Assembly (NCBI GenBank): GCA_048885535.1
Contig: JBHLLO010000037.1
Span: 11,475 to 26,780, forward strand
Direction of reading: 5' to 3'
Length of the DNA: 15,306 bases
Source: Candidatus Hermodarchaeota archaeon
GTDB taxonomy: Archaea; Asgardarchaeota; Lokiarchaeia; Sigyniarchaeales; SOKP01
This document shows, piece after piece, positions 2,208-15,124 of the stretch. The translations under genes and the position numbers were made by a program. A model generated the notes under the pieces. That model did no database searches and was not told where the DNA came from. It saw only the letters and a list, made by a program, of their open reading frames with translations. Within the stretch, counting starts at the first letter, position 1; each line of letters starts with the position of its first letter.

Positions 2208-3110
2208 ATGTTAAATTATGAACGAGAACAGAAGGTAATTAAAGTAGGTAATGTGAAAATTGGAGGGCAACCTGGAGAAAACCCTACTGTCATGATTGGT
2301 ACCGTTTTTTACGCAAAACATGCTGCTTTATTGGATGAAAAAACTGGTAAGGTTGATAAGGACCTTCTTGAGAGAGAATTAAATGAATTTACTGATATTA
2401 TTGAAGACACAAAAATGCAGGGAATCATCGACATTGTTGGTGCTTATTCAGAAGCACTTATAAAAGAATGCGAATTAGTGGCTGAAATTGTTGACTATCC
2501 TTTTCTAGTTGATGGATTGAATGACGAATCTCGTATTCCCACAATGGAGGCTTTAAAAGAAATTGGTTTGTTAGACAGAGCAATATTGAATAGTGTCGAT
2601 GAGAATACCTCTGAAAATAGCATAATAAAACTAAAAGAAATTGGGGTTAAATACGCTGTTCTATTAACCTTTGGCTCTAAGTATATTTTTCCACATCAAA
2701 AGATCGACTTTTTAAGAAACGAACTTATTCCTAAAGTTGAACGTGCTAATATTGAAAACTATATAATTGATACTGCTGTCTTAGACTTACCTTCTATTGG
2801 GATTAATGTTGAGACAACACGAATGGTAAAGAATGAACTTGGTATACCCGTAGGATTTGCTCCTGCAAATGCTATATATGGGTGGGATTATATAAAAAAA
2901 TTTGGAGAAAGTTCCAGGTGTGGAGCAATTGCTTCTATAATGACCTATTGTCTAACTAGTGGAAGTGATTTCGTTTTATTTGGTCCTATTAAATTTGCAA
3001 AATGCATTGTTCCAGCACTTTCTTTAATTTCGGGGATTAACTCATATTATAGAAAAAGAATTTTAAGGAGAGATATTTCTGAGAAGTCTCCATTAAAAAA
3101 AATCTTTTAA
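2208..3110 (+). CDS. mtrH: MtrH-family methyltransferase (pterin:corrinoid methyltransferase, TIM barrel)
   Basis: N-terminus EREQKVIKVGNVKIGGQPGENPTVMIGTVFY, plus PFLVDG, RAILNS, IIDTAV, PVGFAPANA and GSDFVLFGPI, are characteristic of the MtrH family. The symbol denotes family membership, not proven orthology. Confidence 0.9.
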   Translation: MLNYEREQKVIKVGNVKIGGQPGENPTVMIGTVFYAKHAALLDEKTGKVDKDLLERELNEFTDIIEDTKMQGIIDIVGAYSEALIKECELVAEIVDYPFLVDGLNDESRIPTMEALKEIGLLDRAILNSVDENTSENSIIKLKEIGVKYAVLLTFGSKYIFPHQKIDFLRNELIPKVERANIENYIIDTAVLDLPSIGINVETTRMVKNELGIPVGFAPANAIYGWDYIKKFGESSRCGAIASIMTYCLTSGSDFVLFGPIKFAKCIVPALSLISGINSYYRKRILRRDISEKSPLKKIF

Positions 3111-4603
3111 GAAATATATCTAATTAGTAAATCTTGAGTGCGATTCAAAAAATTTGGTAATAGAGAATTAATTTTTTCCTTCTTAGACTCGTCGTCTAAG
3201 AGAAATAATACATACATTTCATATAAGTATATGTTTATCCTTTTAAAAAGAATTGTAGCATCTGCTACCTTAAATATAGCCTCATTCTCTTTCAATGCCT
3301 TATATTTGGAAAATATTTTAAACAAGATCGCAAATTGAGGGGCTGTAATTTCAAAAATATTCAATAACTCATCCGATTGAGGGATATTTGTTAAAGAAAC
3401 CGCTTCAGGCGAATAATCTTCAGCTAAAACTAATCCATCATTACTTAACATCAAAATTAAATAAGTACCCGTTTCTATTGAAAAATTTTTCAGGTTATGT
3501 CCAATCAACTCTTTATTAGGGCTTAATTTTGAAATACCGAAAGAAAAAGCTCTTAAAATCGAATATATATGAAAAATGGTGGTTACAAAAATATCTTGAG
3601 TTTTTGGCTCTAGGCTCTTTAGTTTTTCTTTCATTAATATCAGATTTTCTTGAATATCTTTGGATTCAATAATATCTGGATCTCCTTTTGATAGGATATA
3701 TATAATAGGTGTATCTTGCTTAAAATTCTTTAATACTTTCATTATATTTTGAAGGTAATCAATGCTCTCATCAAATCTACGTTTATTTCTGATATCAATA
3801 AAATAATAAATCAAATCTGCTTCGTATAAATAAATCTGAGCTCTTTCAATATATCTCTTCCTCAAGCTTAATTGTCCGCCTAAATCCCATAAAAATATAG
3901 TAGCTCCAAGTGCTTCAATAGAGTTTACTTGAGCTCCAACTGTTGGTTTCAAACCCATTAATTGAGAAAACTTTCTATCTATTGATAATAAAAATGAAGT
4001 TTTACCCGAATCATCTAACCCTGCAAAAATGATCTTCATTTTTCTCTGGGTTGTAAATGGAGTCAAGGGGGTTTTTTCAATTTTAAGGACATTGTCTAAA
4101 TGTCTCTTAAAGAAACGCTCTACTTCATACTGAGGTTTAAAATTATCAATAATTTTTTTATCAAATTCCTGAAAAAAATCTAAAGTTATATTTTTCAGCC
4201 TATTAATATTATTATATAAAAAATTTCTCTTGTTTTCATCAACCAGTAGAGAAAATGCCGTTGCTAAGGGTTTTTCTGCAAATTTTACATTTATGAAATG
4301 AAAAAAAGTTAAAGAAGTTAAATTAAAATCAGGAAAGGGAATTATTCCAAAATATTGATATTTTTCAACACCGCCTTTATCAAGGATTGTACCATCACCA
4401 ATTAAAAGGCTTAAATTCTTAATTGCCATTTGAGTATAGTCTCTTAGAGTTAAGCTTAAGATTTCTTCTGTTGTTTTATTTTTTTCTGTTGCTTGATTTT
4501 GATCTTGTGGCTCTGGAAACATGTAAATTGGCTGAGGTCCTAATTTTTCATATACACTGAATAAAAGCCCTCTTACTAATGTAGATTTAAGTAGTTTTTC
4601 CAT
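3107..4603 (-). CDS. Tripartite protein: N-terminal longin/uDENN-like domain, Arf/Rag-like small GTPase, C-terminal roadblock-like domain
   Basis: G1 GLDDSGKT (aa 195-202), G2 PT, G3 WDLGGQ, G4 variant SKGD, G5 variant TTI. C-terminus LSPNKELIGHNLKNF...LILMLSNDGLVLA resembles the Rag C-terminal roadblock. The N-terminal ~180 aa align with those of 13712..15124 (YFGIxPFPD shared). The stop overlaps the mtrH stop at TTAA 3107-3110. Confidence 0.88.
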   Translation of the reverse strand: MEKLLKSTLVRGLLFSVYEKLGPQPIYMFPEPQDQNQATEKNKTTEEILSLTLRDYTQMAIKNLSLLIGDGTILDKGGVEKYQYFGIIPFPDFNLTSLTFFHFINVKFAEKPLATAFSLLVDENKRNFLYNNINRLKNITLDFFQEFDKKIIDNFKPQYEVERFFKRHLDNVLKIEKTPLTPFTTQRKMKIIFAGLDDSGKTSFLLSIDRKFSQLMGLKPTVGAQVNSIEALGATIFLWDLGGQLSLRKRYIERAQIYLYEADLIYYFIDIRNKRRFDESIDYLQNIMKVLKNFKQDTPIIYILSKGDPDIIESKDIQENLILMKEKLKSLEPKTQDIFVTTIFHIYSILRAFSFGISKLSPNKELIGHNLKNFSIETGTYLILMLSNDGLVLAEDYSPEAVSLTNIPQSDELLNIFEITAPQFAILFKIFSKYKALKENEAIFKVADATILFKRINIYLYEMYVLFLLDDESKKEKINSLLPNFLNRTQDLLIRYIS

Positions 4604-4634
4604 TCCCTATAACTTTTTTATTATTTAAGATCAA

Positions 4635-4674
4635 ATTTATATTATTTTTAATGTATTTATATTATTTTTAATGT
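4635..4674. repeat. Perfect 20-bp tandem duplication (ATTTATATTATTTTTAATGT x2)
   Basis: Read directly: 4635-4654 and 4655-4674 are identical and lie 32-71 bp upstream of the ATG at 4603 (minus strand). Confidence 0.9.
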
Positions 4675-4941
4675 CTCTTTTTTTTAATTTTTATTCTGAT
4701 TATAAATTGTGAACTTTAATATTTAGTTTCAAATATTAACCTTACAAAAGCTTTAACATCGATGAATCAATCTCATCATAAAAATCTTTTGACTTTATGA
4801 AAGATGAACTTTATCATATTTTTTCGCTTTTTCGGAATATTCATAATATTAAAAAAAAAAAATTTAGATTAACATAATAAAAAAGTTTGCTTCATTTTCC
4901 TATTCTCATTGTTTTTTAAAAAAATGTCAATCTTAAAAGAT

Positions 4942-6627
4942 TTATTTTAAATCTAGTAAATAATTGCGATAATCTTCTTTAGATGCAAATTTAAGAGTAT
5001 TTTTTGCACCACAACTCTCACAATACTCCCTCAAAGTATGAGAAAATTTATGACAATTACTGCAAATATATTTGAAGGTTTTCATATAATTTTTTGTCAT
5101 GTCATCTAATTCTTTATCTAAGATTTTAGGTTTTGTCTCAATTGATCTATGTTCGATATGTTTGTGTCTAATATAAAAAATCATCACTACAGAAATTATG
5201 CCAAAGATAAGTATAATGACTATTACAGTTATTAGTTCATTCGGATTTGAGTCATTAATCAAATAAGTGAGTCCATGGGAGTAATAAATATCCATATTAT
5301 AATTTCTTCCCTCAGACCAAGCTATATGCGGGATATTATTACTATCAAGTTGAATGGTAAAATATTCTCCAGGTCGGGTAAATATACTGGATGTAAAACT
5401 CCGTGCAATCGCAATTTCTTCAGAAAATACTGGTATATTTCGATAAGATCCCGTAAAATTCAGAGTTCGATAATATGGCTTGTATCTACCTTCTTCTTCA
5501 CTATAATAAACAATATGAAGTCTACCTGATCTATCAATTGCTATATCGGGGTTCCATTGATGTCCCGTAATTGAGGGATTGATTCTTATTCGATTACTCC
5601 AAGTTGTTCCAAAGTCATCAGAATATCTTAAATAAACATCCCATGTATCTCCTTGTTGATCGAATTTATCAGCCCATACTACATAAAGCCGCCCGTGTTG
5701 ATCGAATTCAAGAACAGGTAAAGTTATTTTGCTAGGTTCATCATCAATTTCCTCAAACATGCAATAATTACCATCTTGATTTATAAGTTTTGGAGGATCA
5801 AAATTTTGACCATCATTTGAACTCTTGGTAAAATAGAGATTTCCTCCTGATTCAGGAGCCCAAGTCCACGCAATAAAGATATCTTCAGTACTATTTAAAG
5901 TCACATATGGACCAATGAAGTCAATATCTGCTCCTAAGCTTTTGATTTCTTGGTATGAAAGGCCTCCATTTATTGAATAACTCACTCGTACAGTTGTATT
6001 ACCTGTCTCCATATCTGAATCACCATAGACGACATAAATGGTATTATTTTCACCAACTATGAATGTTTCCTTATTTGCAAAGTAATTTCCATTAGTTGCT
6101 TTAACAGGTGTCCAAGTTTCTCCATTATTATCACTTTTAGCTACTGTTATTTGTGTTAGATACTCTCCTTCTGGTAGGATTTCTTCATGCTCTACATATG
6201 CATAATATATTGTATCATCGTACCAATAGAGCCATGGATGTGTTTGCCTAGTAGAGTGCTCTTCAAACATTGGCATATCGTATGGATATGTCCATATTTC
6301 GCCCCCATCAAGAGATCTTACAAAACTTACTCTCGCTCCTCCTCCATTATGACTATTTGAGTTCTTCCATCCCACGAAAATTATTCCATCATCACTTATT
6401 GCCATTGAGACTCCTACATGATGTGGATAAATACTATCGTCAATAGATAAACACTTATCACTCGAGAATGAAAGTATCTCTGGATATGTCTCTTGAGAGA
6501 GATTCTTAATATCATACTCAAGATTAAATTTAATATTAGAATTTGCCAAAAAGGGCAATAATAATAAAATTGCGAATATAATTACAACAAATAACTTTAA
6601 TAATTTGAATCTAATTGATGCTTTCAT
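4942..6627 (-). CDS. Membrane-anchored Asp-box (BNR) beta-propeller protein (sialidase-like fold) with a C-terminal zinc ribbon
   Basis: Five Asp-boxes: SLDGGEIW, SDNNGETW, SINGGLSY, SSNDGQNF, SDDFGTTW. Signal-like N-terminus MKASIRFKLLKLFVVIIFAILLLLPFLA suggests a start at ATG 6627 (the track uses 6687). TM LITVIVIILIFGIISVVMIFYI is followed by RHKH and a tail with CSNC-x10-CESC. Confidence 0.85.
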   Translation of the reverse strand: MKASIRFKLLKLFVVIIFAILLLLPFLANSNIKFNLEYDIKNLSQETYPEILSFSSDKCLSIDDSIYPHHVGVSMAISDDGIIFVGWKNSNSHNGGGARVSFVRSLDGGEIWTYPYDMPMFEEHSTRQTHPWLYWYDDTIYYAYVEHEEILPEGEYLTQITVAKSDNNGETWTPVKATNGNYFANKETFIVGENNTIYVVYGDSDMETGNTTVRVSYSINGGLSYQEIKSLGADIDFIGPYVTLNSTEDIFIAWTWAPESGGNLYFTKSSNDGQNFDPPKLINQDGNYCMFEEIDDEPSKITLPVLEFDQHGRLYVVWADKFDQQGDTWDVYLRYSDDFGTTWSNRIRINPSITGHQWNPDIAIDRSGRLHIVYYSEEEGRYKPYYRTLNFTGSYRNIPVFSEEIAIARSFTSSIFTRPGEYFTIQLDSNNIPHIAWSEGRNYNMDIYYSHGLTYLINDSNPNELITVIVIILIFGIISVVMIFYIRHKHIEHRSIETKPKILDKELDDMTKNYMKTFKYICSNCHKFSHTLREYCESCGAKNTLKFASKEDYRNYLLDLK

Positions 6628-6846
6628 CTTCTTTGAGTATAAACATTGTAAACTTATAATGATTATGTAAATTATAATTAAGTACATTAACTTTAGAACT
6701 AAATACTATTATTTGCTGAACAGTTATAACATTTTTAAAATTCCTTAATAATCTAAAAATTAATAATATATGCTTGTAGCTTTTTTCGCAGAAAACTACA
6801 TACAAGCGTAAAGATTTTAGGATAAATAATTATTTATATATTAGAT

Positions 6847-7809
6847 TTGTCTATGTTAGAAAGTATTGCTAAATGCATAAGAATTAATAAAAATATTATT
6901 GAAAAGAAAGAGATTAATCCTATAGTTCAATTCATTAACGAATATTCATTTAAAAATGAACGCATTTATTCCGATATAGGTGAAGACTCAGCAGCTATTA
7001 AGGATAATAAAAACTACATTTTATTAACTACTGACCGAATTAAAACCGAATTTGTTGAAAACTATCCTCATGGAGCTGGGTTTAGTTCTTTAGTAGTTGG
7101 AATAGATGATATTTACTGCTGTGGCGGAATCCCTCTTGCGGCAAGCATTATTCTCTCATATAAAGACGCAACTATCGGCCAAAAAATTATTGAAGGGATA
7201 TGTGAAGCATCTCAAAAGTTTCAATTACCAGTTATACGAGGGCATACTAAGCCAGATAGTAATTGTTATGAACTTAGTTCTACTATAATTGGAGAAATAA
7301 AGAAAGAAAATTATATCTCTGCTTTAAATGCTCAAGTTAATGATGATATAATTTTAGCTGTTGATTTTGACGGAAAAGTTGGAAAAGCGAGTGAACTTTA
7401 TTGGGATACTGTAACCTTCAAAGATTCTGATCAAGTTCTACAAAAAAGAAAGTCAATGAATCAAATTGCTGAGCAACATCTAGTTAATTCCTCAAAAGAT
7501 ATCTCTAATGGAGGAATTTTTGGGACTGTTTTTCAATTAATTAAATATTCTAAAGTAGGTGCCAACATAAATCTTAACAGTATAGAGATTCCTAAAATTT
7601 TAAGACAACAAAATTATTCTTTAGAAAAATATATACAAATGTATTTAACCACTTCATACATTTTAACAGCATCAAAACAAAATTCAGATAAAATTTTGGA
7701 AATTTTTTCACAATTCGGTCTTTCTTCCAAGATTATTGGCAAAATAATAAAAGGAAACCAATTACTAATAAATAATGGTAAAGACTCATTGTCAGTAATG
7801 AGTCATTAA
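6847..7809 (+). CDS. AIR synthase (PurM)-like ATP-binding protein, sll0787/methanogenesis-marker-2-like subgroup
   Basis: GEDSAAI, GAGFSSLVVGIDDIYCCGGIPLA, GHT and KDISNGGIFGT are PurM/ThiL/HypE/SelD superfamily motifs; KDISxxG is typical of the sll0787-like group. The start is TTG 6847 or ATG 6853. Confidence 0.82.
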   Translation: MSMLESIAKCIRINKNIIEKKEINPIVQFINEYSFKNERIYSDIGEDSAAIKDNKNYILLTTDRIKTEFVENYPHGAGFSSLVVGIDDIYCCGGIPLAASIILSYKDATIGQKIIEGICEASQKFQLPVIRGHTKPDSNCYELSSTIIGEIKKENYISALNAQVNDDIILAVDFDGKVGKASELYWDTVTFKDSDQVLQKRKSMNQIAEQHLVNSSKDISNGGIFGTVFQLIKYSKVGANINLNSIEIPKILRQQNYSLEKYIQMYLTTSYILTASKQNSDKILEIFSQFGLSSKIIGKIIKGNQLLINNGKDSLSVMSH

Positions 7810-7831
7810 AAAAATTTAGGTTGATAAATTT

Positions 7832-8389
7832 ATGGAGTCTAATTTCAAAGATAAATTTAAAGGAATAGTTTCAGTAATTGGTGCTAGTGAAATAGATAGT
7901 AAAACCAAAAAAATTACAATTAAATTAGGAAAATTATTAGCTCGAAATCAGTATGCTATTGTTTGTGGTGGACTAACTGGAGTAATGGAGTCAGTTTGTG
8001 AAGGTGCGAAAGAAGAAGGAGGTTTAACAATAGGTGTTATTCCATTTGTAGAAAAATCTGCAGCAAATAGATATGTTGACATCATAATTCCTGTGCCATT
8101 TTCACAAGCAAGAAACATTGTGGTTGTATTAACTGGAGATATATGCGTGGCAATAGGAGGAAAAGCCGGAACATTATCTGAGCTCTGTTTTGCATGGATA
8201 TATCAAAAACCTATCATTGCTTTGTCAAATATTGAAGGATGGTCATCAAAAATTTCGAATCAAAAACTTGATGACAGAAGACCAGATAAAATTCATGGTG
8301 TTGAAACTCCAGAACAAGTGATTGAAAAAATTAATGAATTAATTAATTTAAACATAAAGTTTAATCAAAATGTAAATGATAAATTTTAA
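7832..8389 (+). CDS. LOG/SLOG-family Rossmann-fold nucleotide-binding protein (TIGR00725-like)
   Basis: VSVIGAS, CGGLTGVME, GGLTIGVIP, ARNIVVVLTGD and GGKAGTLSE (GGxGTxxE-type) motifs. Confidence 0.88.
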   Translation: MESNFKDKFKGIVSVIGASEIDSKTKKITIKLGKLLARNQYAIVCGGLTGVMESVCEGAKEEGGLTIGVIPFVEKSAANRYVDIIIPVPFSQARNIVVVLTGDICVAIGGKAGTLSELCFAWIYQKPIIALSNIEGWSSKISNQKLDDRRPDKIHGVETPEQVIEKINELINLNIKFNQNVNDKF

Positions 8390-8413
8390 GTAGATAAGAA
8401 GAGGTTAAGGGTA

Positions 8414-8671
8414 ATGGTTAAAATTTCAGGTGGTAATGGAACATCCTATGAAGATGCAATTATAATTTCAGACTGTTCTAATATTGAAGGTGTTGAACAG
8501 GAATATATTGAATTGAGGAAAAGATTTGGTAATTATCGATTAATAAAACAAAGCTTAATTCAGAACAATGGAAAAGTATACGATTTGTTAGAGATAGAAT
8601 TAGAAGATGGGACAATAACTTCGGTTTATTTTGATATAACCAATTTCTTTGGAAAAGGATTTGACTTTTAA
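8414..8671 (+). CDS. Small hypothetical protein (85 aa)
   Basis: ATG preceded by purine-rich AAGAGG...AAGGG, 24 bp after the co-oriented upstream gene. Globular-looking sequence (GGNGTSYEDAIII...YDLLEI...YFDITNFFGK). Function not recognised. Confidence 0.75.
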   Translation: MVKISGGNGTSYEDAIIISDCSNIEGVEQEYIELRKRFGNYRLIKQSLIQNNGKVYDLLEIELEDGTITSVYFDITNFFGKGFDF

Positions 8672-8814
8672 TAAAGAAGAGTTCTAAATTGTAATTTTTA
8701 TTTAAATATGTCAATATTTTAGTAAATTTTTGCAAAAGAAATTTATAGCATAAGATAATCTTTTTTTTTATAGAATATATTTATATTTTATTTTTATTAT
8801 CTCAAAGCTTAGAT

Positions 8815-8820
8815 AGGTGA
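8815..8820 (+). promoter_or_regulatory. Archaeal-type ribosome binding site (AGGTGA)
   Basis: AGGTGA lies 5 nt before the TTG at 8826, supporting the non-ATG start. Confidence 0.7.
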
Positions 8821-8825
8821 ATTAG

Positions 8826-9788
8826 TTGTCAATCCAATATTTAACTAAGAAAAAGGAAGAAAAACCTGATGAACCTTCTAAGATACTTTTTACTGGATTA
8901 GATTATGCTGGAAAAACAACAATAATTAAAGGGTTGCAACGAGAATTTTCTAAAATTGCTCTACTTAAACCGACAAGAGGAGCACAAAGACGCATATTCG
9001 AATTTTTAGGGAGAGACATAGCAGAATGGGACCTTGGTGGACAAGTGAGTTATCGAATTGCTTACTTAAAAAATCCGGGAAAATATTTTGATGGTACTGA
9101 AGTCGCAATATATGTAATAGATATACAAAGTAAGAGTAGATTTTCGGAAGCAATAAGTTATTTTAAAGATGTAGTAGAACAATTCAAAAAACTGGGAATT
9201 AGTCCCCCCATATATGTATTTCTCCACAAATACGATCCAGCACTAAAACGAAATGCTCCCAATGAATTAAAGGCTTTGGAAGCAGAAATAAAGGAAAAAA
9301 TAAAAAGTCTTGTTGATTATAAGAAGGTTTATTATTATAACACATCGATTTATGACTTAGCTTCAATAATCAAGGCAATGTCTGAAATTTTGTTGAATCT
9401 TTATCCGAAAGCAGACCTAATTGAAAAAACAGTATTTCAGTTTGCTGAAAAAGTCAACTCAGAAGGAGTTGTGATTCTTGATGACAATTCTCTGATTGTT
9501 GGGGCTTATTATAAGAATGATGAAGCTCGTAATTTATTATCTGCTTCGACTCCTTATTTCCTAGCTTTAAACGATAATTTACAATTCACAGAGGTCTTAC
9601 CTGGAAAGGAATATGATGAGAGTAAAATGGTTATTCAAAGGTTTGGAAGGAATTTTATATTTAAACAATTATCATTAAGGGAAGGTAGCCCTCCGTACTA
9701 CTTAGTAATGTTGAAGCAAGATCCTAACATACTTAGGGAAGACTTTGATACTTTCTCCAATTTATTAAAAGAACTTCTTTATAAATAA
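8826..9788 (+). CDS. Rag/Gtr-like small GTPase with C-terminal roadblock-like domain
   Basis: G1 GLDYAGKT, G2 PT, G3 WDLGGQ, Rag-type G4 HKYD and G5 TSIYD. The following LYPKADLIEKTVFQFAEKVNSEGVVILDDNSLIVG resembles the start of the Rag C-terminal roadblock domain. Confidence 0.9.
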   Translation: MSIQYLTKKKEEKPDEPSKILFTGLDYAGKTTIIKGLQREFSKIALLKPTRGAQRRIFEFLGRDIAEWDLGGQVSYRIAYLKNPGKYFDGTEVAIYVIDIQSKSRFSEAISYFKDVVEQFKKLGISPPIYVFLHKYDPALKRNAPNELKALEAEIKEKIKSLVDYKKVYYYNTSIYDLASIIKAMSEILLNLYPKADLIEKTVFQFAEKVNSEGVVILDDNSLIVGAYYKNDEARNLLSASTPYFLALNDNLQFTEVLPGKEYDESKMVIQRFGRNFIFKQLSLREGSPPYYLVMLKQDPNILREDFDTFSNLLKELLYK

Positions 9789-9911
9789 TATTATTTTTTA
9801 TTTAAGCCAATTAGTCTAATTTTGAATCTTTGTATTAAATAAGATTAATTAGATTGAATTTTTATTAATATATTACATACTATCAAAAAATATAATGTTG
9901 AGTATAAGTTA

Positions 9912-10850
9912 ATGATAATATGTTCAAACTGTGGTACAACAAATCCATCTAATGAACGAATATGCAGAACATGTGGAGCACTTCTACCAGTTTCAAGTAA
10001 GGCTCCACGTATAAAGATTGGAGGCGAAAAGAAGACTTCTAAATCAACCAAATCCAAGACTCCATCTAGTAAGCAAGAAAAGTTTAGCGAAATATCGCCA
10101 CTAGATCTTCAAGAAATACCAACAGAATATAATGACACAGAATTAGAAGAAAATGAAATACAAAATTCGCAAGAACTTTTAGACCTAGGGGAAGAGAAAG
10201 AAATTTTAAAGGAAATTACTCCAAAACCGTTTAAAGGTTCAATTATTGCTTCAAAAGCAGTATTTGGAACTCCAGTTAAGAAAAAACCTAAAAAAATTCC
10301 ACAAGAACGGGATAAAAGTCTAGAATCTACATTAATGAAGCAAAAGCAATTAGAGGAAGATATGACAAAAGTCCTTAAATTTCTTTCCAAAAAAGTCACA
10401 GTTGAAAAATTACCTTCAGAGAAGAAGAAAGAGGAGGAGAAAACAAAGCAAGAAGTAATTTCGCCATCAAGTATGAATGAAATTTTAAAGGAATTATTGA
10501 AACTTGATTTACACATTGAAGCATCGGCAATTATAAAAAGTGACGGAACGATCCTTGCGTCTGCGATTTCATCTCGTATATCTGATTCTTTATTTGCAAC
10601 AATTGGTCAAAGTCTTTCTTTGATTGGAATGGATATAATTGAAAGTCTAAGTGCAGGTAAACTTTTAAACATATCACTAAGAGGTACAAATGGAGTTTTA
10701 GATTTAGCACCTATAGATACAAAAATACCAAAATTTAACGATATGATTTTAGTAATCCTTTCTAATCCAAAAGTTAAGAGTGGAATTATTCATTTTGCAG
10801 CAAATATAGTTAAAAAGCAAGTAAAAGAATATTTAGGATTTTCAAAATAA
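9912..10850 (+). CDS. Zinc ribbon, charged low-complexity linker and roadblock/LC7 (MglB/LAMTOR-like) domain protein
   Basis: N-terminal CSNC-x10-CRTCG; K/E/S/P-rich linker of about 160 aa; C-terminal ~125 aa with IEASAIIKSDGTILAS...GKLLNISLRGTNG...ILVIL...SGIIHF, matching the roadblock pattern. Confidence 0.87.
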   Translation: MIICSNCGTTNPSNERICRTCGALLPVSSKAPRIKIGGEKKTSKSTKSKTPSSKQEKFSEISPLDLQEIPTEYNDTELEENEIQNSQELLDLGEEKEILKEITPKPFKGSIIASKAVFGTPVKKKPKKIPQERDKSLESTLMKQKQLEEDMTKVLKFLSKKVTVEKLPSEKKKEEEKTKQEVISPSSMNEILKELLKLDLHIEASAIIKSDGTILASAISSRISDSLFATIGQSLSLIGMDIIESLSAGKLLNISLRGTNGVLDLAPIDTKIPKFNDMILVILSNPKVKSGIIHFAANIVKKQVKEYLGFSK

Positions 10851-11648
10851 TTAAATAACTTGCTTTTGAATAGACATCTTATTTATTTTAATATTCCTAA
10901 AATGTGATAAATGTAATTTTAAATCTTGCAGAAAGGAATTTAATTTATAAATTGAAACTAATGGTACTAAATTTTCATTAACTCTCAACCAATTTTCTTC
11001 GAATGTGACTAGGAGAGGGATAATGATTAATGGTAATTTAATTTTTGAATAAGTTTTCGGACCAATAAGAGAATGAATTAAGTTTGAAAGAATTTCAGGA
11101 TTTTTTTTTAGGATTATTGCCCTTTGATATTGTTTATTTGCTGCTTTGTTAAGCGCGCTGTATACATCTCTTTTTTTCCATTGCTTTGCATCAATTAGAA
11201 GGAGATAATCATATTTCCATCCAACTACATCAATTTCATATTTGGTTTGTTTCGTTTTTTTTCTGTAGTATGTTCTATCTGAAAATCTAAAATTTTTTAT
11301 TGTATTATAATTATGTTTTGTAAGAATTTCTTGGATTAGTTGTTCAAAACCATTAAAGTCAATTAAATTAGATAATTTTTTGATGTCAAATTCTAGAACT
11401 TGAATTGCTTCAATAATGAATAAGATTTTATTGATAGAATAAAAATTCGTGTAAGATCCCTTTTGTTTTGAAATAAATTCGAAATTATTAATCAAATTTT
11501 CTAATTTTAATTCATCAAATTCTTTTAAAAAATTAATTTCATACGTCTCACACCATATCTCAATTGCATCTTTAGCTGATTTTAAAAGAATATGATAAAT
11601 CTCAGTAAAAAAGTCTTTTAAAGATAGATCTAAAGATTGATTTAGCAT
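10851..11648 (-). CDS. PD-(D/E)XK restriction-endonuclease-like protein (Mrr/NERD-like)
   Basis: FEQLIQEIL (motif I), EIDVVG (motif II) and LIDAKQW (motif III), after a helical N-terminal extension of about 95 aa. Its stop abuts the stop of 9912..10850. Confidence 0.78.
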   Translation of the reverse strand: MLNQSLDLSLKDFFTEIYHILLKSAKDAIEIWCETYEINFLKEFDELKLENLINNFEFISKQKGSYTNFYSINKILFIIEAIQVLEFDIKKLSNLIDFNGFEQLIQEILTKHNYNTIKNFRFSDRTYYRKKTKQTKYEIDVVGWKYDYLLLIDAKQWKKRDVYSALNKAANKQYQRAIILKKNPEILSNLIHSLIGPKTYSKIKLPLIIIPLLVTFEENWLRVNENLVPLVSIYKLNSFLQDLKLHLSHFRNIKINKMSIQKQVI

Positions 11649-11812
11649 ATGAATATTTCTTAATGAGGGTAAAATAAATTTAAGAGACTTTAAGAATTAT
11701 GATTTTGAATTCAATTTTTCTATTTAGTACATAATTTAATTAAATTATTGTAAATTTTATGTCTTAGGGACTTACCTCTCTTATTATTTAAGAATTAATT
11801 GGATTATTTAAA

Positions 11813-13648
11813 TTGAAAATGAGTCAAAATAGATCATATTTAAAGAAATTAATGCCAAAGGTATTTAGGACTGAAGGAGATGTTGTATCTTTTGATCCTA
11901 ATATAATCGAACAGAGTTTAATAAAAGAAACAGGACTGGATAAACATATTGCTGGAAAGATAACTGAGCTAGTAGTACGAAGGATTATATCTTCGGGAAT
12001 AAAATTTCTCTCTGGTCCACACATAAGAGAAATTGTATGTTCTATTTTATCTGAACAACATTACGAAGAAGAGCGTAAATTATATACTAGAATTGGAATG
12101 CCTTTAATGGATTATGAGGAAATTCTTGAGAAAAACTTTAAAAGTAGTCTGGACGAAGTTGTTAATCCAGATAAAATCCATCATATAGCCGCTAATCAGT
12201 TAGCAGAGGAATACTCCCTTTTGAGAGTATTATCAGATGAAGAAGCTCATGCTCATTTGTATGGTGATATTTATATTCATCATTTGAAATACTTTGATTT
12301 AAGGCCTTATTCAGAGGTATGGGATGCGAGAATGATTTTAAAATATGGATTGCCACCAGTAAAAAATTGGAACTTCAGCTCTAGATTAGGTCCAGCAAAA
12401 AACTTATTAGATGCGACTTATCAGCTTGCTCAATGGTTAGGTTTTGTTCAAAGTGAATTTAGTAGTGAGCAGAAACTCGAACATTTAACAGTTTTTTTGG
12501 CGCCATATGTTAAAGGTATATCAGATAATGAAATTGCGAATATTTTAAGAAATTTTATCTACAAAATTGATCAATTAACTATGATTACAGCAAAAAATAC
12601 ATCAAAAACTTCAATTTCTTGCGCTCCTTCAATAACACAACCCCTTTGGAACCTTTCGGCTATTACACCGAATGGAGAAGAATCAGGAGTTTATGGTGAT
12701 TATCAAGTAGAATGTTTGAAAATCTTTGAAATCTTAAGTTCTATATTTATGAAAGGAGATTACAATAACAATTGTTTTTTATATCCTAACCATATTGTAT
12801 TCTTTAATGATAAATTACTGCAGAAGTATAAGGAATCCTATTTTCAAGTATTTAATGAAGCTCTGAAAACTAAAAATCTTTACTTCATTAATTCCTGCCC
12901 TAATTGGGTTAAAAAGTCATATTTTGAATATGGTACTAAGTTCAATAATCATGGAATACTCCAAAAAGTATCTTTAAATCTACCACGAATAGCTTATAAG
13001 GAGAAGGATGAGGATAAATTTTTAGAAAATTTAGGTAGCCTAATGAGACTAACTTCTGGAATCTTAAAGAAGAAAGTAGACATAATCCAGAAGAGATTAA
13101 AGACAAGTCATCTTCCACTTTGTAGTAATTTAAACAGAGAATTTTTATTCAATTTAGAAAATCAAAAGTTATGTATTGGATTTGTAGGATTAAGCGAAAC
13201 TTTAAAACTCTTAACAAATTTAGATTTTTCTGAGCTATTAAATGCATTCAATTTAGCTCAAAAAATAATAACTGAAATGAAGAAGTTTTGTATAGAAAAT
13301 TCAAGTGAATTAAATCCATTTTGCATAACTGGTAACTCGTCAAATAAGGCTTTAAGCCGTTTTGCTCGATTAGATAAAAAACATTTTAGTAAAGATGCAA
13401 TTCCTCATTTTGATGGAAAAAATTTAGTTTATTCAGCATCCTATCAACTGACTAAAAACCTTAAAATACCCCTTTTAGAGCGTGTCAATAAACATGGAAT
13501 TTTTCATTCAATAATTCAAAATGATACCATTGAACAGATATCTCTTAGTAAATATAATAAGGAATTGAGTAATGCTCAACAAATTTATGATTTTCTTAGA
13601 AGAATCTGTGAGACATCTCAAATTTCATATCTCAAAATTATTGAATAG
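11813..13648 (+). CDS. ATP-cone-containing class III ribonucleotide reductase (NrdD)-like protein, C-terminally truncated, probably catalytically inactive
   Basis: ATP cone (KVFRTEGDVVSFDPNIIEQSLIKETGL...IREIV) and NrdD core motifs AHLYGDIYIHHL, GPAKNL, VSLNLPRIAY, IGFVGLSE and RFARLD. No C-terminal CxxC..CxxC and no RxxGY glycyl-radical loop. The start is TTG 11813 or ATG 11819. Confidence 0.85.
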   Translation: MKMSQNRSYLKKLMPKVFRTEGDVVSFDPNIIEQSLIKETGLDKHIAGKITELVVRRIISSGIKFLSGPHIREIVCSILSEQHYEEERKLYTRIGMPLMDYEEILEKNFKSSLDEVVNPDKIHHIAANQLAEEYSLLRVLSDEEAHAHLYGDIYIHHLKYFDLRPYSEVWDARMILKYGLPPVKNWNFSSRLGPAKNLLDATYQLAQWLGFVQSEFSSEQKLEHLTVFLAPYVKGISDNEIANILRNFIYKIDQLTMITAKNTSKTSISCAPSITQPLWNLSAITPNGEESGVYGDYQVECLKIFEILSSIFMKGDYNNNCFLYPNHIVFFNDKLLQKYKESYFQVFNEALKTKNLYFINSCPNWVKKSYFEYGTKFNNHGILQKVSLNLPRIAYKEKDEDKFLENLGSLMRLTSGILKKKVDIIQKRLKTSHLPLCSNLNREFLFNLENQKLCIGFVGLSETLKLLTNLDFSELLNAFNLAQKIITEMKKFCIENSSELNPFCITGNSSNKALSRFARLDKKHFSKDAIPHFDGKNLVYSASYQLTKNLKIPLLERVNKHGIFHSIIQNDTIEQISLSKYNKELSNAQQIYDFLRRICETSQISYLKIIE

Positions 13649-13711: not shown

Positions 13712-15124
13712 ATGAATGGTCCTAATGCAACTATCATAAAAGCTGTCGTTTTGAGTTTTTTTGATGAGGAAGGACCGACTGCAAAAATTTTTTGGCCTGA
13801 AGATATGGAAGAGTCTGCTCGGTTATTAGTTGCTATGAAAACGATTAGTCTCTTAATGGGAGATGCGGTCTATCAAAATGGGACTGAAATAGAAGGTGTT
13901 AATTATTTTGGTATTTTACCATTCCCAGATTTAAAAATGAACGGATTAACCTATTTCTTTTTAATACCAGATGCAAAAGCGCGTGGAAATGCCACAGCCG
14001 CAACTATTACGTGTTTAATTGATGAAGAAAATAAAATATTCTTCTACGAAAATATGAAATATTTAAGAATAATAATTGATAAAGCGGCTTCAAGAATCCA
14101 ATTATCAAAAGAAGTTGAAAATAATAAACTTATTATTGAAGATCTAAGGGAAGAATTATTTGAATTCGGTAGCAAAATAAAAGATCCATTATCTATTAAA
14201 AAAGTGCTAAAAATTTTGTTCGTAGGTTTAGATCGCGCAGGAAAATCTAGCTTCTTATTGGGTGTAAGGAAAAAATATTCTGAGATCATTAAAGCATTGC
14301 CTACTAAAGGAGTTGCAAGAACAGAAGAGAAAATATTTGAAGAACAGAATTCGACAATCTCGATCTGGGATTTAGGTGGACAATTAAAATATCGAGAAAA
14401 ATATCTTGAGCAAAGTAAGTTATACCTCTATAATGTTGATTTACTCTTTTACTTTATTGATATCCAAGATATAAAAAGAAATGAAGAAACAATTACATTG
14501 TTTAAAAAGGTTTTAGATTCTCTAAGACAATTAAATGAATTTCCACCTATTGTTATTTGCTTAAATAAATTTGATCCTGATTTAAAGAAATCAAAAAGTA
14601 TCAAAAAAAATATCAAATATCTTGAACAAGAAATTTTAGAAAGCTCACCTAACTTCTTTTTAAAGATTTTTCATACTTCAATCTTTGATCATTATTCTTT
14701 AATCTCAGCTTATTCCTATGGACTCTCACAACTTAGTCCAAACCGAGAATTGTTTGAAAATCAATTAAAATTTTTAGCTAAAAAGACAAAATCTGATGCT
14801 ATTTTACTACTTAATGATAATGGTATAATTTTATCAAATTATTCGCAATCAGAAATTTCTGAAAAGGTATTTGAAATCTCTGCCCCTCACTTTCAAACTC
14901 TTTATAAAACGTTTAAAGAGTTTAAATTACTAAAACAAGATTTCATTATTACATCAGGTATAACAGAGGAGGAAAAGAAAATTATTTTCAAAAAAATTGA
15001 AGTAGATAAATATAAGTTATATTTACTTCTATTTATGGAAGAATTTGAAAGTGTTAAAAAAATTGAAAAGCATTTACCAAAATTTATTAAGAATGTCAGA
15101 GAATTAATCCAAACTTACATTTAA
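13712..15124 (+). CDS. Tripartite protein: folliculin/SMCR8-like longin domain with DxxARG motif, Arf/Rag-like small GTPase, C-terminal roadblock-like domain
   Basis: N-terminal VVLSFFDEEGP and YFFLIPDAKARG. G1 GLDRAGKS (aa 172-179), G2 PT, G3 WDLGGQ, G4 NKFD, G5 TSIFD. C-terminus LSPNRELFENQLKFL...AILLLNDNGIILS is roadblock-like. Confidence 0.9.
   Translation: MNGPNATIIKAVVLSFFDEEGPTAKIFWPEDMEESARLLVAMKTISLLMGDAVYQNGTEIEGVNYFGILPFPDLKMNGLTYFFLIPDAKARGNATAATITCLIDEENKIFFYENMKYLRIIIDKAASRIQLSKEVENNKLIIEDLREELFEFGSKIKDPLSIKKVLKILFVGLDRAGKSSFLLGVRKKYSEIIKALPTKGVARTEEKIFEEQNSTISIWDLGGQLKYREKYLEQSKLYLYNVDLLFYFIDIQDIKRNEETITLFKKVLDSLRQLNEFPPIVICLNKFDPDLKKSKSIKKNIKYLEQEILESSPNFFLKIFHTSIFDHYSLISAYSYGLSQLSPNRELFENQLKFLAKKTKSDAILLLNDNGIILSNYSQSEISEKVFEISAPHFQTLYKTFKEFKLLKQDFIITSGITEEEKKIIFKKIEVDKYKLYLLLFMEEFESVKKIEKHLPKFIKNVRELIQTYI

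Follow-up and report, generated by a model that had tools for sequence, protein, structure and literature searches.

The stretch of DNA analyzed here, called the window, comprises 15,306 nucleotides from the genome of a Candidatus Hermodarchaeota archaeon (Asgardarchaeota, Lokiarchaeia; assembly GCA_048885535.1, contig JBHLLO010000037.1, positions 11,475 to 26,780). It encodes two paralogous proteins, P0001 and P0002, each of which joins an N-terminal longin domain to a Rag/Gtr-type GTPase domain and a roadblock-type C-terminal region. The longin domain of P0002 has a loop arginine that is a candidate for the arginine finger of a GTPase-activating protein (GAP), and P0001 does not have this arginine. 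We found that the difference holds throughout the family to which the window belongs and that the two genes lie in a conserved, divergent gene block. We tentatively propose that P0001 may be the non-catalytic half of an asymmetric dimer with P0002. The two genes are the following, with positions counted from the first nucleotide of the window.

3107..4603, - strand: P0001 ("A-type"), 498 amino acids (aa), with an Arg-less longin domain, a Rag/Gtr-type GTPase domain and a roadblock-type C-terminal region (open reading frame, Pfam, homologs)
13712..15124, + strand: P0002 ("B-type"), 470 aa, Arg-bearing, with a longin domain at aa 5-160, a GTPase domain at about 165-336 and a roadblock region at about 341-470 (open reading frame, Pfam, model)

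P0001 and P0002 are paralogs over their full length, far beyond what chance would produce. The two proteins aligned end-to-end with 157 of 507 positions identical (31%; BLASTP, E = 9e-78), and the N-domains alone aligned with a probability of 99.9% (hhalign, E = 8.6e-32). P0001 matched the Pfam families Arf (E = 5.7e-20) and Gtr1_RagA (E = 1.2e-16; 61.3 bits, where the cut-off is 22), and P0002 was likewise above the cut-off for both. A preliminary description of this DNA, made from its letters, had deduced the three-domain layout and the collinear N-termini from short strings of residues. All of these strings are present where they were said to be: LFSVYEKLGPQP (aa 14-25), AIKNLSLLIGD (60-70), YFGIIPFPD (84-92), and LTFFHFINVKFAEK (98-111) in P0001, and AMKTISLLMGD (41-51), YFGILPFPD (65-73), and LTYFFLIPDAKARG (79-92) in P0002. 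The longin folds, Pfam matches, and profile alignments agree with that layout. The separation of the two genes, given there as about 9 kb on opposite strands, is 9.1 kb by measurement.

We compiled one alignment for each type. The A-type alignment contains P0001 and the best 120 of its 349 homologs (n = 121; one of these is the window's own sequence again), all full-length and 57-100% identical to P0001. The B-type alignment contains P0002 and 119 of the best 120 of its 605 homologs (n = 120). The two sets are not species-matched, and residue counts below refer to them unless another sample is given. Close homologs, from Promethearchaeota/Lokiarchaeota metagenome-assembled genomes, carry the database label "ADP-ribosylation factor-like protein".

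Both N-domains are predicted to have the longin fold. The domain of P0001 is as follows.

4055..4588, - strand: longin domain of P0001, aa 6-183 (AlphaFold2 model, Foldseek, VIA-align)

AlphaFold2 modelled residues 1-183 of P0001 with a predicted local distance difference test score (pLDDT) of 88.8 and a predicted template modelling score (pTM) of 0.87 from a 48-row alignment, and residues 1-160 of P0002 with a pLDDT of 83.7 and a pTM of 0.81 from a 42-row alignment. The order of elements in both models was beta-beta-alpha-beta-beta-beta-alpha-alpha, which is the longin order. The top Foldseek match of both was 8yqg (E = 3e-7 for P0001 and 5e-8 for P0002), and chains of GATOR1, Lst4, and FLCN-FNIP2 came next. 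The matches listed for P0002 also included C9orf72-SMCR8 and DENND1 chains; of these two, only DENND1 (6ekk) was among those listed for P0001. VIA-align gave a similar ranking. For P0001, the Z scores were 17.3 for 8yqg, 13.4 for Lst4, 12.6-13.3 for C9orf72-SMCR8, 11.5-12.4 for FLCN-FNIP2, and 10.5 for GATOR1; for P0002 they were 19.0 for 8yqg, 13.9 for Lst4, 13.2 for 8dhb_J, and 12.5 and 11.9 for further longin-GAP chains. The longins of SNARE, TRAPP, and adaptor proteins had lower scores (about 8-10). On these models, the nearest solved eukaryotic relatives of both N-domains are the longin-GAP subunits Lst4/FNIP, FLCN, C9orf72-SMCR8, and NPRL2/3.

At the level of sequence, the link to these subunits is thin and confined to the B-type proteins. 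P0002 matched the Pfam family Folliculin (PF11704) over aa 79-139 with 21.4 bits, under the cut-off of 23.3. At E <= 1, the family was matched by 29 of 30 members of the B clade (best E = 4.5e-5) and by 0 of 30 members of the A clade. Profiles built from the N-domains only and compared with all Protein Data Bank (PDB) chains recovered no FLCN, NPRL2, or SMCR8 chain with either clade; the B-type profile gave chance-level matches to designed helical proteins only, and the A-type profile matched 8yqg at E = 0.058.

The A-type longin domain has features of its own. An insert of 19 residues found only in A-type proteins (aa 38-56; 4436-4492, - strand) lies between strand 2 and helix 1. In P0001, residues 38-46 of the insert were modelled with a pLDDT below 50, and the insert ends in Arg54-Asp55, present in 113 and 119 of the A-type proteins, respectively. 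His102 was invariant in the A-type proteins, and the residue there was Phe in 120 of 120 B-type proteins. Mean pairwise identity among A-type proteins was 0.57 in the longin domain, 0.72 in the GTPase domain, and 0.64 in the roadblock region; the corresponding values for B-type proteins were 0.77, 0.75, and 0.79. The longin is thus the least conserved domain of the A-type proteins, yet it is retained with invariant residues, which fits a scaffold role.

The GTPase domain of P0001 has the residues expected of a domain that binds GTP. It is followed by a roadblock region.

3539..4042, - strand: GTPase domain of P0001, aa 188-355 (conserved nucleotide-binding motifs)
3110..3526, - strand: C-terminal Rag-type roadblock region of P0001, aa 360-498 (profile alignment to RagC and Gtr2)

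In the A-type alignment, Gly195 and Lys201 were present in all 121 proteins and Gly200 in 120, Thr221 of switch I was present in 120, and Asp240, Gly243, and Gln244 of the DxxGQ motif were each present in 121. The guanine motif is S305-K306-x-D308 (Ser in 115, Lys and Asp in 121 each), where B-type proteins have NKxD. Taken together, these motifs were conserved in 113-121 of the 121 proteins. P0001 is not a dead GTPase, because its P-loop, its switch I Thr, and its DxxGQ motif are intact, as they are in the B-type GTPase domain. The open frame, the full-length homologs, and these motifs also rule out that P0001 is a pseudogene or a decaying copy. Gtr1_RagA was matched by 30 of 30 A-clade members. 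Profiles of 30 members per clade matched RagA, RagC, Gtr1, and Gtr2 chains with E-values of 1e-26 to 9e-11, and these matches ran through the roadblock region; positions 190-494 of the A-clade profile aligned to residues 61-365 of RagC (E = 7e-12) and 5-307 of Gtr2. GTPase chains dominate the best 60 PDB matches of these full-length profiles. The Pfam family Robl_LC7 itself was matched only weakly, by 4 of 30 A-clade members. To judge from its motifs and profile matches, P0001 belongs to the Asgard Rag/Gtr family as a functional GTPase that binds GTP.

The loop arginine is, by alignment, lost in P0001 and kept by P0002 and most of the longin family. The relevant residues are the following.

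13979..13987, + strand: Ala90-Arg91-Gly92 of P0002, candidate arginine finger, in the beta4-beta5 loop (translates to ARG)
4268..4291, - strand: beta4-beta5 loop of P0001, NVKFAEKP, aa 105-112 (between strands 95-104 and 113-122)
4535..4540, - strand: Gly22-Pro23 of P0001, the "GP motif", in the beta1-beta2 turn (translates to GP)

The loop between strands 4 and 5 of P0002 reads D-A-K-A-R-G. Arg91 and Gly92 were present in all 120 B-type proteins, Ala90 in 118, and Asp87 in 116. The A-type loop is one residue shorter. The preliminary description had Glu110 of P0001 in place of the arginine, and the coordinates it gave for the Glu110 codon (4276-4274) are right. However, BLASTP, MAFFT, and hhalign all open a one-residue gap in this loop, so that Arg91 faces Ala109, Gly92 faces Glu110, and Asp87 faces Val106. 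A replacement of Arg by Glu is therefore not the best reading, being off by one, and what remains of the claim is that the Arg, Asp, and Gly of D-x-x-A-R-G are all absent from P0001. The A-type column that faces Arg91 contained Ser in 54 proteins, Thr in 23, Asp in 12, Ala in 10, and other residues in the rest, with Arg in 0 of 121; that is, the arginine is not lost sporadically among the proteins of the window's family. The next column, facing Gly92, contained Glu in 85, Asp in 15, Asn in 9, and Gln in 5. A-R-G was invariant in 30 B-type sequences taken from across the order and in 15 of 15 order-wide B-type N-domains.

Both types have kept the GP motif without exception (121 of 121 A-type proteins, 120 of 120 B-type proteins). 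The accessible part of one published account (PMC12290439) describes this motif as specific to FLCN, NPRL2, SMCR8, and the Arg-less C9orf72, beside the arginine finger, and reports Asgard "Folliculin/SMCR8-type" longins with both GP and Arg.

Loss of the arginine was specific to one clade of the wider family. We compared the B-type N-domain profile with 1.84 billion representative sequences and found 179 proteins at E <= 0.001. Among the best 150 of these, GP was present in 126 and Arg-Gly (RG) at the finger position in 93. Grouped into classes that we drew up from length and motif, RG was present in 30 of 35 longin-GTPase proteins and in 14 of the 15 proteins in which an extension precedes the longin, as in 8yqg. 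Twenty of the best 150 were three-domain proteins. RG was present in eight, seven of which scored higher against P0002 than against P0001; it was absent from 12, and 11 of these scored higher against P0001, three of them narrowly. RG is thus the norm in the wider family, and the three-domain proteins without it are nearly all P0001-like, indicating a clade-specific loss.

Two other accounts of the loop bear on what its loss would mean. The B-type arginine might be structural or bind something other than the nucleotide of a GTPase, in which case its absence from P0001 would be uninformative about catalysis. The sub-cut-off Folliculin match and the lack of a sequence-level match to FLCN, NPRL2, or SMCR8 chains fit this account, and GAP-activity biochemistry for any Asgard longin was not found in the accessible parts of the literature on them. 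We nevertheless consider it quite improbable, given that RG is kept across several architectures that join a longin to a GTPase or roadblock domain, and that the arginine lies in the loop beside the GP turn, an arrangement that the accessible part of PMC12290439 describes both in the catalytic pocket and in Asgard longins of the FLCN/SMCR8 type. Alternatively, the P0001 longin might still be catalytic through another residue, giving a pair with two fingers. Lys107 and Lys111 are present in the P0001 loop, and in A-type proteins of a second family of the same order (f2), the column aligned with Arg91 is Arg in four of eight proteins and Lys in one. No basic loop residue is conserved in the family of the window (f1), however: column 107 is Lys in 50, Glu in 34, and Asn in 19 proteins, and column 111 is Ile in 41, Ser in 17, Ala in 14, and Lys in 11. 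This makes a second finger very unlikely in our view. A finger relocated to one of the invariant residues Arg54, Arg126, and Arg135 is unlikely as well, since, going by the order of strands and helices in the model, these residues would sit within helices or next to them, either halfway along the fold or at its far end.

A-type and B-type clades are old and usually occur together. We searched 151 genomes of the class for orthologs. No three-domain protein was found outside four families of one order (f1-f4), and no A-type protein outside f1 and f2. Both types are present in both of these families, and the f2 proteins are about 34% (A-type) and 43% (B-type) identical to those of the window. In families f5 and f6, the genomes with matches, re-scored at E <= 1e-35, had longin-less Rag-like proteins only, and two f7 genomes had no match at E <= 1e-45. 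A quick IQ-TREE phylogeny of 50 rows, including four longin-less paralogs as outgroup, recovered a single A clade (21 of 21 rows; SH-aLRT 97) with members from f1 and f2. The B-type proteins and the single-copy proteins were on the other side (support 90), and the B-type proteins mirrored the f1/f2 make-up of the A clade. The root of this tree is unsure because the outgroup branches are long. The presence of both clades in two families of one order shows that they are old.

We scored a gene as present at E <= 1e-100 or as a high-identity fragment at a contig end, and corrected one genome (G121). Among the 127 f1 genomes, 104 had both genes, 10 had only the A-type, 6 had only the B-type, and 7 had neither. 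Contig ends account for several of the genomes with a single paralog, and in several of the B-only cases the B-type gene is itself at a contig end. Co-occurrence of Arg-plus and Arg-minus clades, which the preliminary description had named as a test of its proposal, is thus seen both in the tree, where the two clades are separate, and in this tally.

P0001 and P0002 are also linked by gene order. Both genes were on one contig in 66 of 102 listed genomes with both, giving 67 pairs, and all 67 were divergent. The gap between them was 5,592-22,392 bases (median 8,078). Genes 5.6-22 kb apart are not one operon. The remark in the preliminary description that the link rests on homology and not on operon structure nevertheless has to be revised, in that a conserved divergent block connects the two genes. 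Between the two genes of the window lie two more of interest.

8826..9788, + strand: P0003, 320 aa, the third Rag-like GTPase of the block, longin-less and with a roadblock region (Gtr1_RagA E = 1.3e-27; 8yl2_A E = 2.2e-93)
9912..10850, + strand: P0004, 312 aa, a zinc ribbon, a low-complexity linker and a C-terminal domain (zinc-ribbon Pfam matches)

The block is kept in a distant f1 genus and at three f2 loci. It begins with an unnamed membrane protein (C-terminal part, f2 loci only), an MtrH-like gene (f1 locus only), and the A-type gene. These are followed by an AIR-synthase-like gene, a SLOG-family gene, and P0003, and then by P0004 (at loci L030 and L029 only), an unnamed gene, and the B-type gene. 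P0003 orthologs were found in 119 of 126 f1 genomes, and wherever the places of all three genes were listed, P0003 was between A and B. This is the case in the window and at L030, L012, L013, and L014, which represent two families. The homologs of P0004 adjoin the P0003 ortholog at L030 and L029. The C-terminal 128 aa of P0004 had no Pfam match and gave E-values of about 0.5 to the Robl_LC7 chains 7f8m and 7yh1, so we call this domain roadblock-like only tentatively.

P0003 may be an alternative partner or a client of the two longin-bearing proteins. P0001 and P0002 might be alternative partners of P0003, as RagC and RagD are for RagA/B, with only the B-containing dimer having a finger. The position of P0003 between A and B is consistent with this arrangement, and P0003 is the best conserved of the three (most-of-family identity of 66-90%, compared with 58-86% for B and 45-78% for A). 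In G038, an f2 genome without an A-type gene, a head-to-tail run on one strand comprises the P0003 ortholog, a P0004-like gene, and the B-type gene. Against it, the P0003 relative 8yl2 was deposited as eight chains of one sequence, indicating that such a protein is stable without a partner chain. We regard P0003 as an improbable hub of this kind.

Several neighbouring genes are described here for completeness. A gene for an MtrH-family methyltransferase (2208-3110, + strand; Pfam E = 8.8e-60) is convergent with P0001, with a 4-base overlap of the 3' ends, and a gene of the same family adjoins the P0001 ortholog at L030. The gene at 4942-6687 (- strand) encodes a 581-aa protein with BNR/sialidase-like repeats (BNR_2, E = 1.3e-8), transmembrane-looking segments at the N-terminus and late in the sequence, and a zinc-ribbon-like CxxC...CxxC tail at the C-terminus. 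It had no tblastn match at L030 or L012-L014, and its gene may have been inserted into the block. Directly upstream of P0002 lies a gene with a TTG start that resembles anaerobic ribonucleotide reductase (11813-13648, + strand; NRDD E = 2.3e-55), and only its first 114 residues were matched at L030. The 14 sequencing runs listed for positions 3107-13000 are all DNA metagenomes, with no RNA run among them.

Other longin-GTPase genes lie near P0001 and its orthologs. Two more proteins of this kind, of 359 and 348 aa, are encoded on the same contig as P0001 (C37), upstream of the window (contig positions 2587-3012 and 6606-7046, - strand; loci L035 and L034), with genes about 7.5 and 11.6 kb from P0001. 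They have a GP-motif longin with Arg-Gly (KRG and RRG) and a Ras/Rab-like GTPase domain. In genomes G092 and G102, the same N-domain profile matched open reading frames of similar size (352-368 aa) about 9-12 kb from the P0001 ortholog. The region around P0001 looks like a GTPase island. One genome (G055) has two complete A/P0003/B blocks, on contigs C63 and C13, with A-type identities of 74% and 59%; these are probably from two strains or genera mixed in one bin (contamination 6%).

We predicted the structure of a complex of full-length P0001 and P0002. The score was 0.44 (0.45, 0.44, and 0.44 in the individual runs), which is rated as "weak support", and the best of three controls scored 0.00. 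Agreement between the runs covered 88% or more of the contacts, and the pLDDT of the partner was at least 76. In the benchmark for this score, 58 of the 80 solved complexes passed the mark, as did 2 of the 110 mismatched pairs, and scores at or below 0.60 were seen in 7 of the 80 solved complexes and in both of the passing mismatches; these counts hold only roughly here because custom alignments were used. The heterodimer that the preliminary description had suggested is plausible and unproven.

In the eukaryotic longin GAP heterodimers FLCN-FNIP2, NPRL2-NPRL3, and SMCR8-C9orf72, one longin has the arginine and the other does not. A P0001-P0002 pair could work along the same lines. The roadblock regions of the two proteins would dimerize as in Rag/Gtr dimers, and the longin domains would pair as in the three heterodimers just named. 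We infer that Arg91 of P0002 would be the GAP finger, so that the pair would contain two GTPase sites and one finger. With a single finger, only one nucleotide pocket would be served. Stimulated hydrolysis might thus reach one of the pair's own pockets, or that of the syntenic P0003. The outcome would be unequal nucleotide loading, like that of RagA-GTP/RagC-GDP. Based on the clade-specific loss of the loop arginine, the co-occurrence and synteny of the two genes, and the predicted complex, we put the probability that P0001 is the non-catalytic half of an asymmetric, single-finger dimer with P0002 at roughly 0.4.

Several observations weigh against this proposal. The link between Arg91 and the FLCN finger is indirect, the Folliculin match being below the cut-off; and as the N-domain profiles match no FLCN, NPRL2, or SMCR8 chain in the PDB, the equivalence of Arg91 with the finger of those proteins is not demonstrable by sequence. 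In f2, the A-type column facing Arg91 contained two Ser and one Phe in addition to the four Arg and one Lys mentioned above, and "Arg-minus" is therefore strict only in the family of the window. The f2 arginines are in the contexts V-RKRF and K-RNSY and never in A-R-G. The two types are also found apart, which counts against an obligate pair. A B-like protein with ARG is the sole three-domain protein found in three f3 genomes and one f4 genome (66-88% complete), and the one three-domain protein found in G038 (91% complete) is B-like with ARG. Conversely, G092 (a single contig; 90% complete) and G102 (97% complete) have the A-type gene on its own; a search there with the B-type N-domain profile recovered the A-type protein, smaller longin-GTPase proteins, and nothing else. 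The high co-occurrence partly reflects the near-universality of the genes, their physical linkage, and the kinship of the genomes. For either clade, the profile scores higher against RagA/Gtr1 than against RagC/Gtr2, and P0001 and P0002 therefore do not correspond by orthology to the two sides of the eukaryotic A/C split. Finally, because Rag/Gtr heterodimers have already been solved, the pass in the complex prediction may only reflect likeness to them.

Some of the same observations would fit a P0001 that acts alone, as a roadblock homodimer or a monomer, with its longin turned, after the duplication, into a platform for binding, a lid for autoregulation, or a surface like that of a guanine nucleotide exchange factor (GEF), which would have made the finger dispensable. 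Homodimers have been modelled for longin-GTPase-roadblock architectures of MK-D1 in the accessible part of Tran et al. 2024 (PMC10933270). The A-type gene persists without the B-type gene in G092 and G102, the two genes are too far apart to form an operon, and His102, Arg135, Arg54-Asp55, and the 19-residue insert are specific to the A-type proteins and absent from the B-type. We think that P0001 acting alone is somewhat unlikely. Its synteny with B-type and P0003 genes is kept over two families, and the GP motif, tied to the GAP pocket in the accessible part of PMC12290439, is still invariant. In addition, the longin is the least constrained domain of the A-type proteins, which is more in keeping with a passive scaffold than with an active surface acquired anew. 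We therefore retain, as a tentative proposal, the single-finger dimer of P0001 and P0002.

A dimer of this kind would bring together features that are spread over several proteins in eukaryotes. Rag GTPases and the longin GAPs folliculin and GATOR1 are at the core of eukaryotic nutrient sensing, and they have a two-fold asymmetry. If the proposal is correct, the two asymmetries that are spread over four eukaryotic proteins, namely an unequal Rag dimer and a one-finger longin GAP dimer, would be found here in two polypeptides. Asymmetric longin GAPs could then arise by duplication and loss of a finger on the GTPase that they regulate, and the locus would contain a natural catalytic/non-catalytic longin pair that evolved by duplication on the client GTPase itself. 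A bolder version, which we consider doubtful, is that P0001 and P0002 form a self-regulating Rag-like switch whose single finger forces opposite nucleotide states and which, together with P0003 and P0004, would be a prokaryotic counterpart of Rag, Ragulator, and folliculin. If the two proteins do not pair, the locus would still be a clean natural experiment on the role of the loop arginine in Asgard longins. In either case, the block is a small, expressible archaeal system that comprises one roadblock-like and three Rag-like proteins.

Compared with eukaryotic Rag/Gtr heterodimers, P0001 and P0002 share the GTPase domain followed by a C-terminal roadblock region, and they too are two diverged paralogs in one genome. 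The N-terminal longin has no counterpart in eukaryotic Rags. Since three-domain proteins were found only in f1-f4 and A-type proteins only in f1-f2 among the 151 genomes, the duplication that gave rise to them was independent of the eukaryotic one.

The eukaryotic longin GAPs are the closest solved eukaryotic folds (Z = 10.5-13.9), and the likeness is at the level of the fold, apart from the sub-cut-off Folliculin match of the B-type proteins. FLCN, FNIP, SMCR8, and C9orf72 carry a DENN module after the longin. In P0001 and P0002, the longin is instead followed by a client-type Rag GTPase and a roadblock region. Of the features of FLCN/NPRL2/SMCR8-type subunits, P0001 has the longin fold and GP but not the catalytic Arg, the Folliculin match, or DENN. 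C9orf72 resembles P0001 in being Arg-less with GP kept, and FNIP2 and NPRL3 differ from P0001 with respect to GP (accessible part of PMC12290439). The resemblance to C9orf72 does not extend to its WD motif, which is at -5/-4 from the Gly; Tyr18-Glu19 of P0001 is at -4/-3 and so out of register.

Solved Lokiarchaeal proteins share parts of this architecture. The closest fold, 8yqg, is the longin of a Lokiarchaeal Roadblock-Longin protein and a dimer; it has the GP motif, and its architecture is roadblock-longin without a GTPase. The Lokiarchaeal protein 8yl2 is Rag-like without a longin and close to P0003, and its GTPase domain matches both paralogs. The Lokiarchaeal structures 8zla/9m28 (LokiRagM) have an architecture unlike that of P0001 and P0002. 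We found no paper in the literature for 8yqg, 8yl2, or 8zla/9m28.

Published work already covers much of the ground on which P0001 and P0002 stand. An Asgard RagGtr clade has been published (bioRxiv 10.1101/2024.02.28.582541, accessible part). The longin-GTPase-roadblock architecture, with models of dimers mediated by the roadblock, was published for MK-D1 (PMC10933270). As described in the accessible part of that paper, the MK-D1 proteins have the same architecture, come from the same organism class, and have GTPases that are Rag-like but annotated as Arf, with dimerization predicted through the roadblock. That part presents homodimer models and one operon-encoded Rag pair, and mentions no arginine finger, Arg-plus/Arg-minus pair, or gene block. 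With the Asgard FLCN/SMCR8 longins in the accessible part of PMC12290439, P0002 shares the arrangement of the GP turn and the loop Arg, and P0001 shares GP. There, the question is asked whether the client is an ArfR or a Rag/Gtr GTPase, and no fusion is reported; here the longin is fused to a Rag-like GTPase. In the literature we found no report of an Arg-plus/Arg-minus pair, a finger-bearing longin-Rag fusion, or the gene block, and the supplements of PMC10933270 and PMC12290439 may list these proteins. Based on this comparison, the architecture and the Asgard folliculin-type longins were already known, and what appears to be new is a fixed Arg-plus/Arg-minus pair that lies in conserved synteny.

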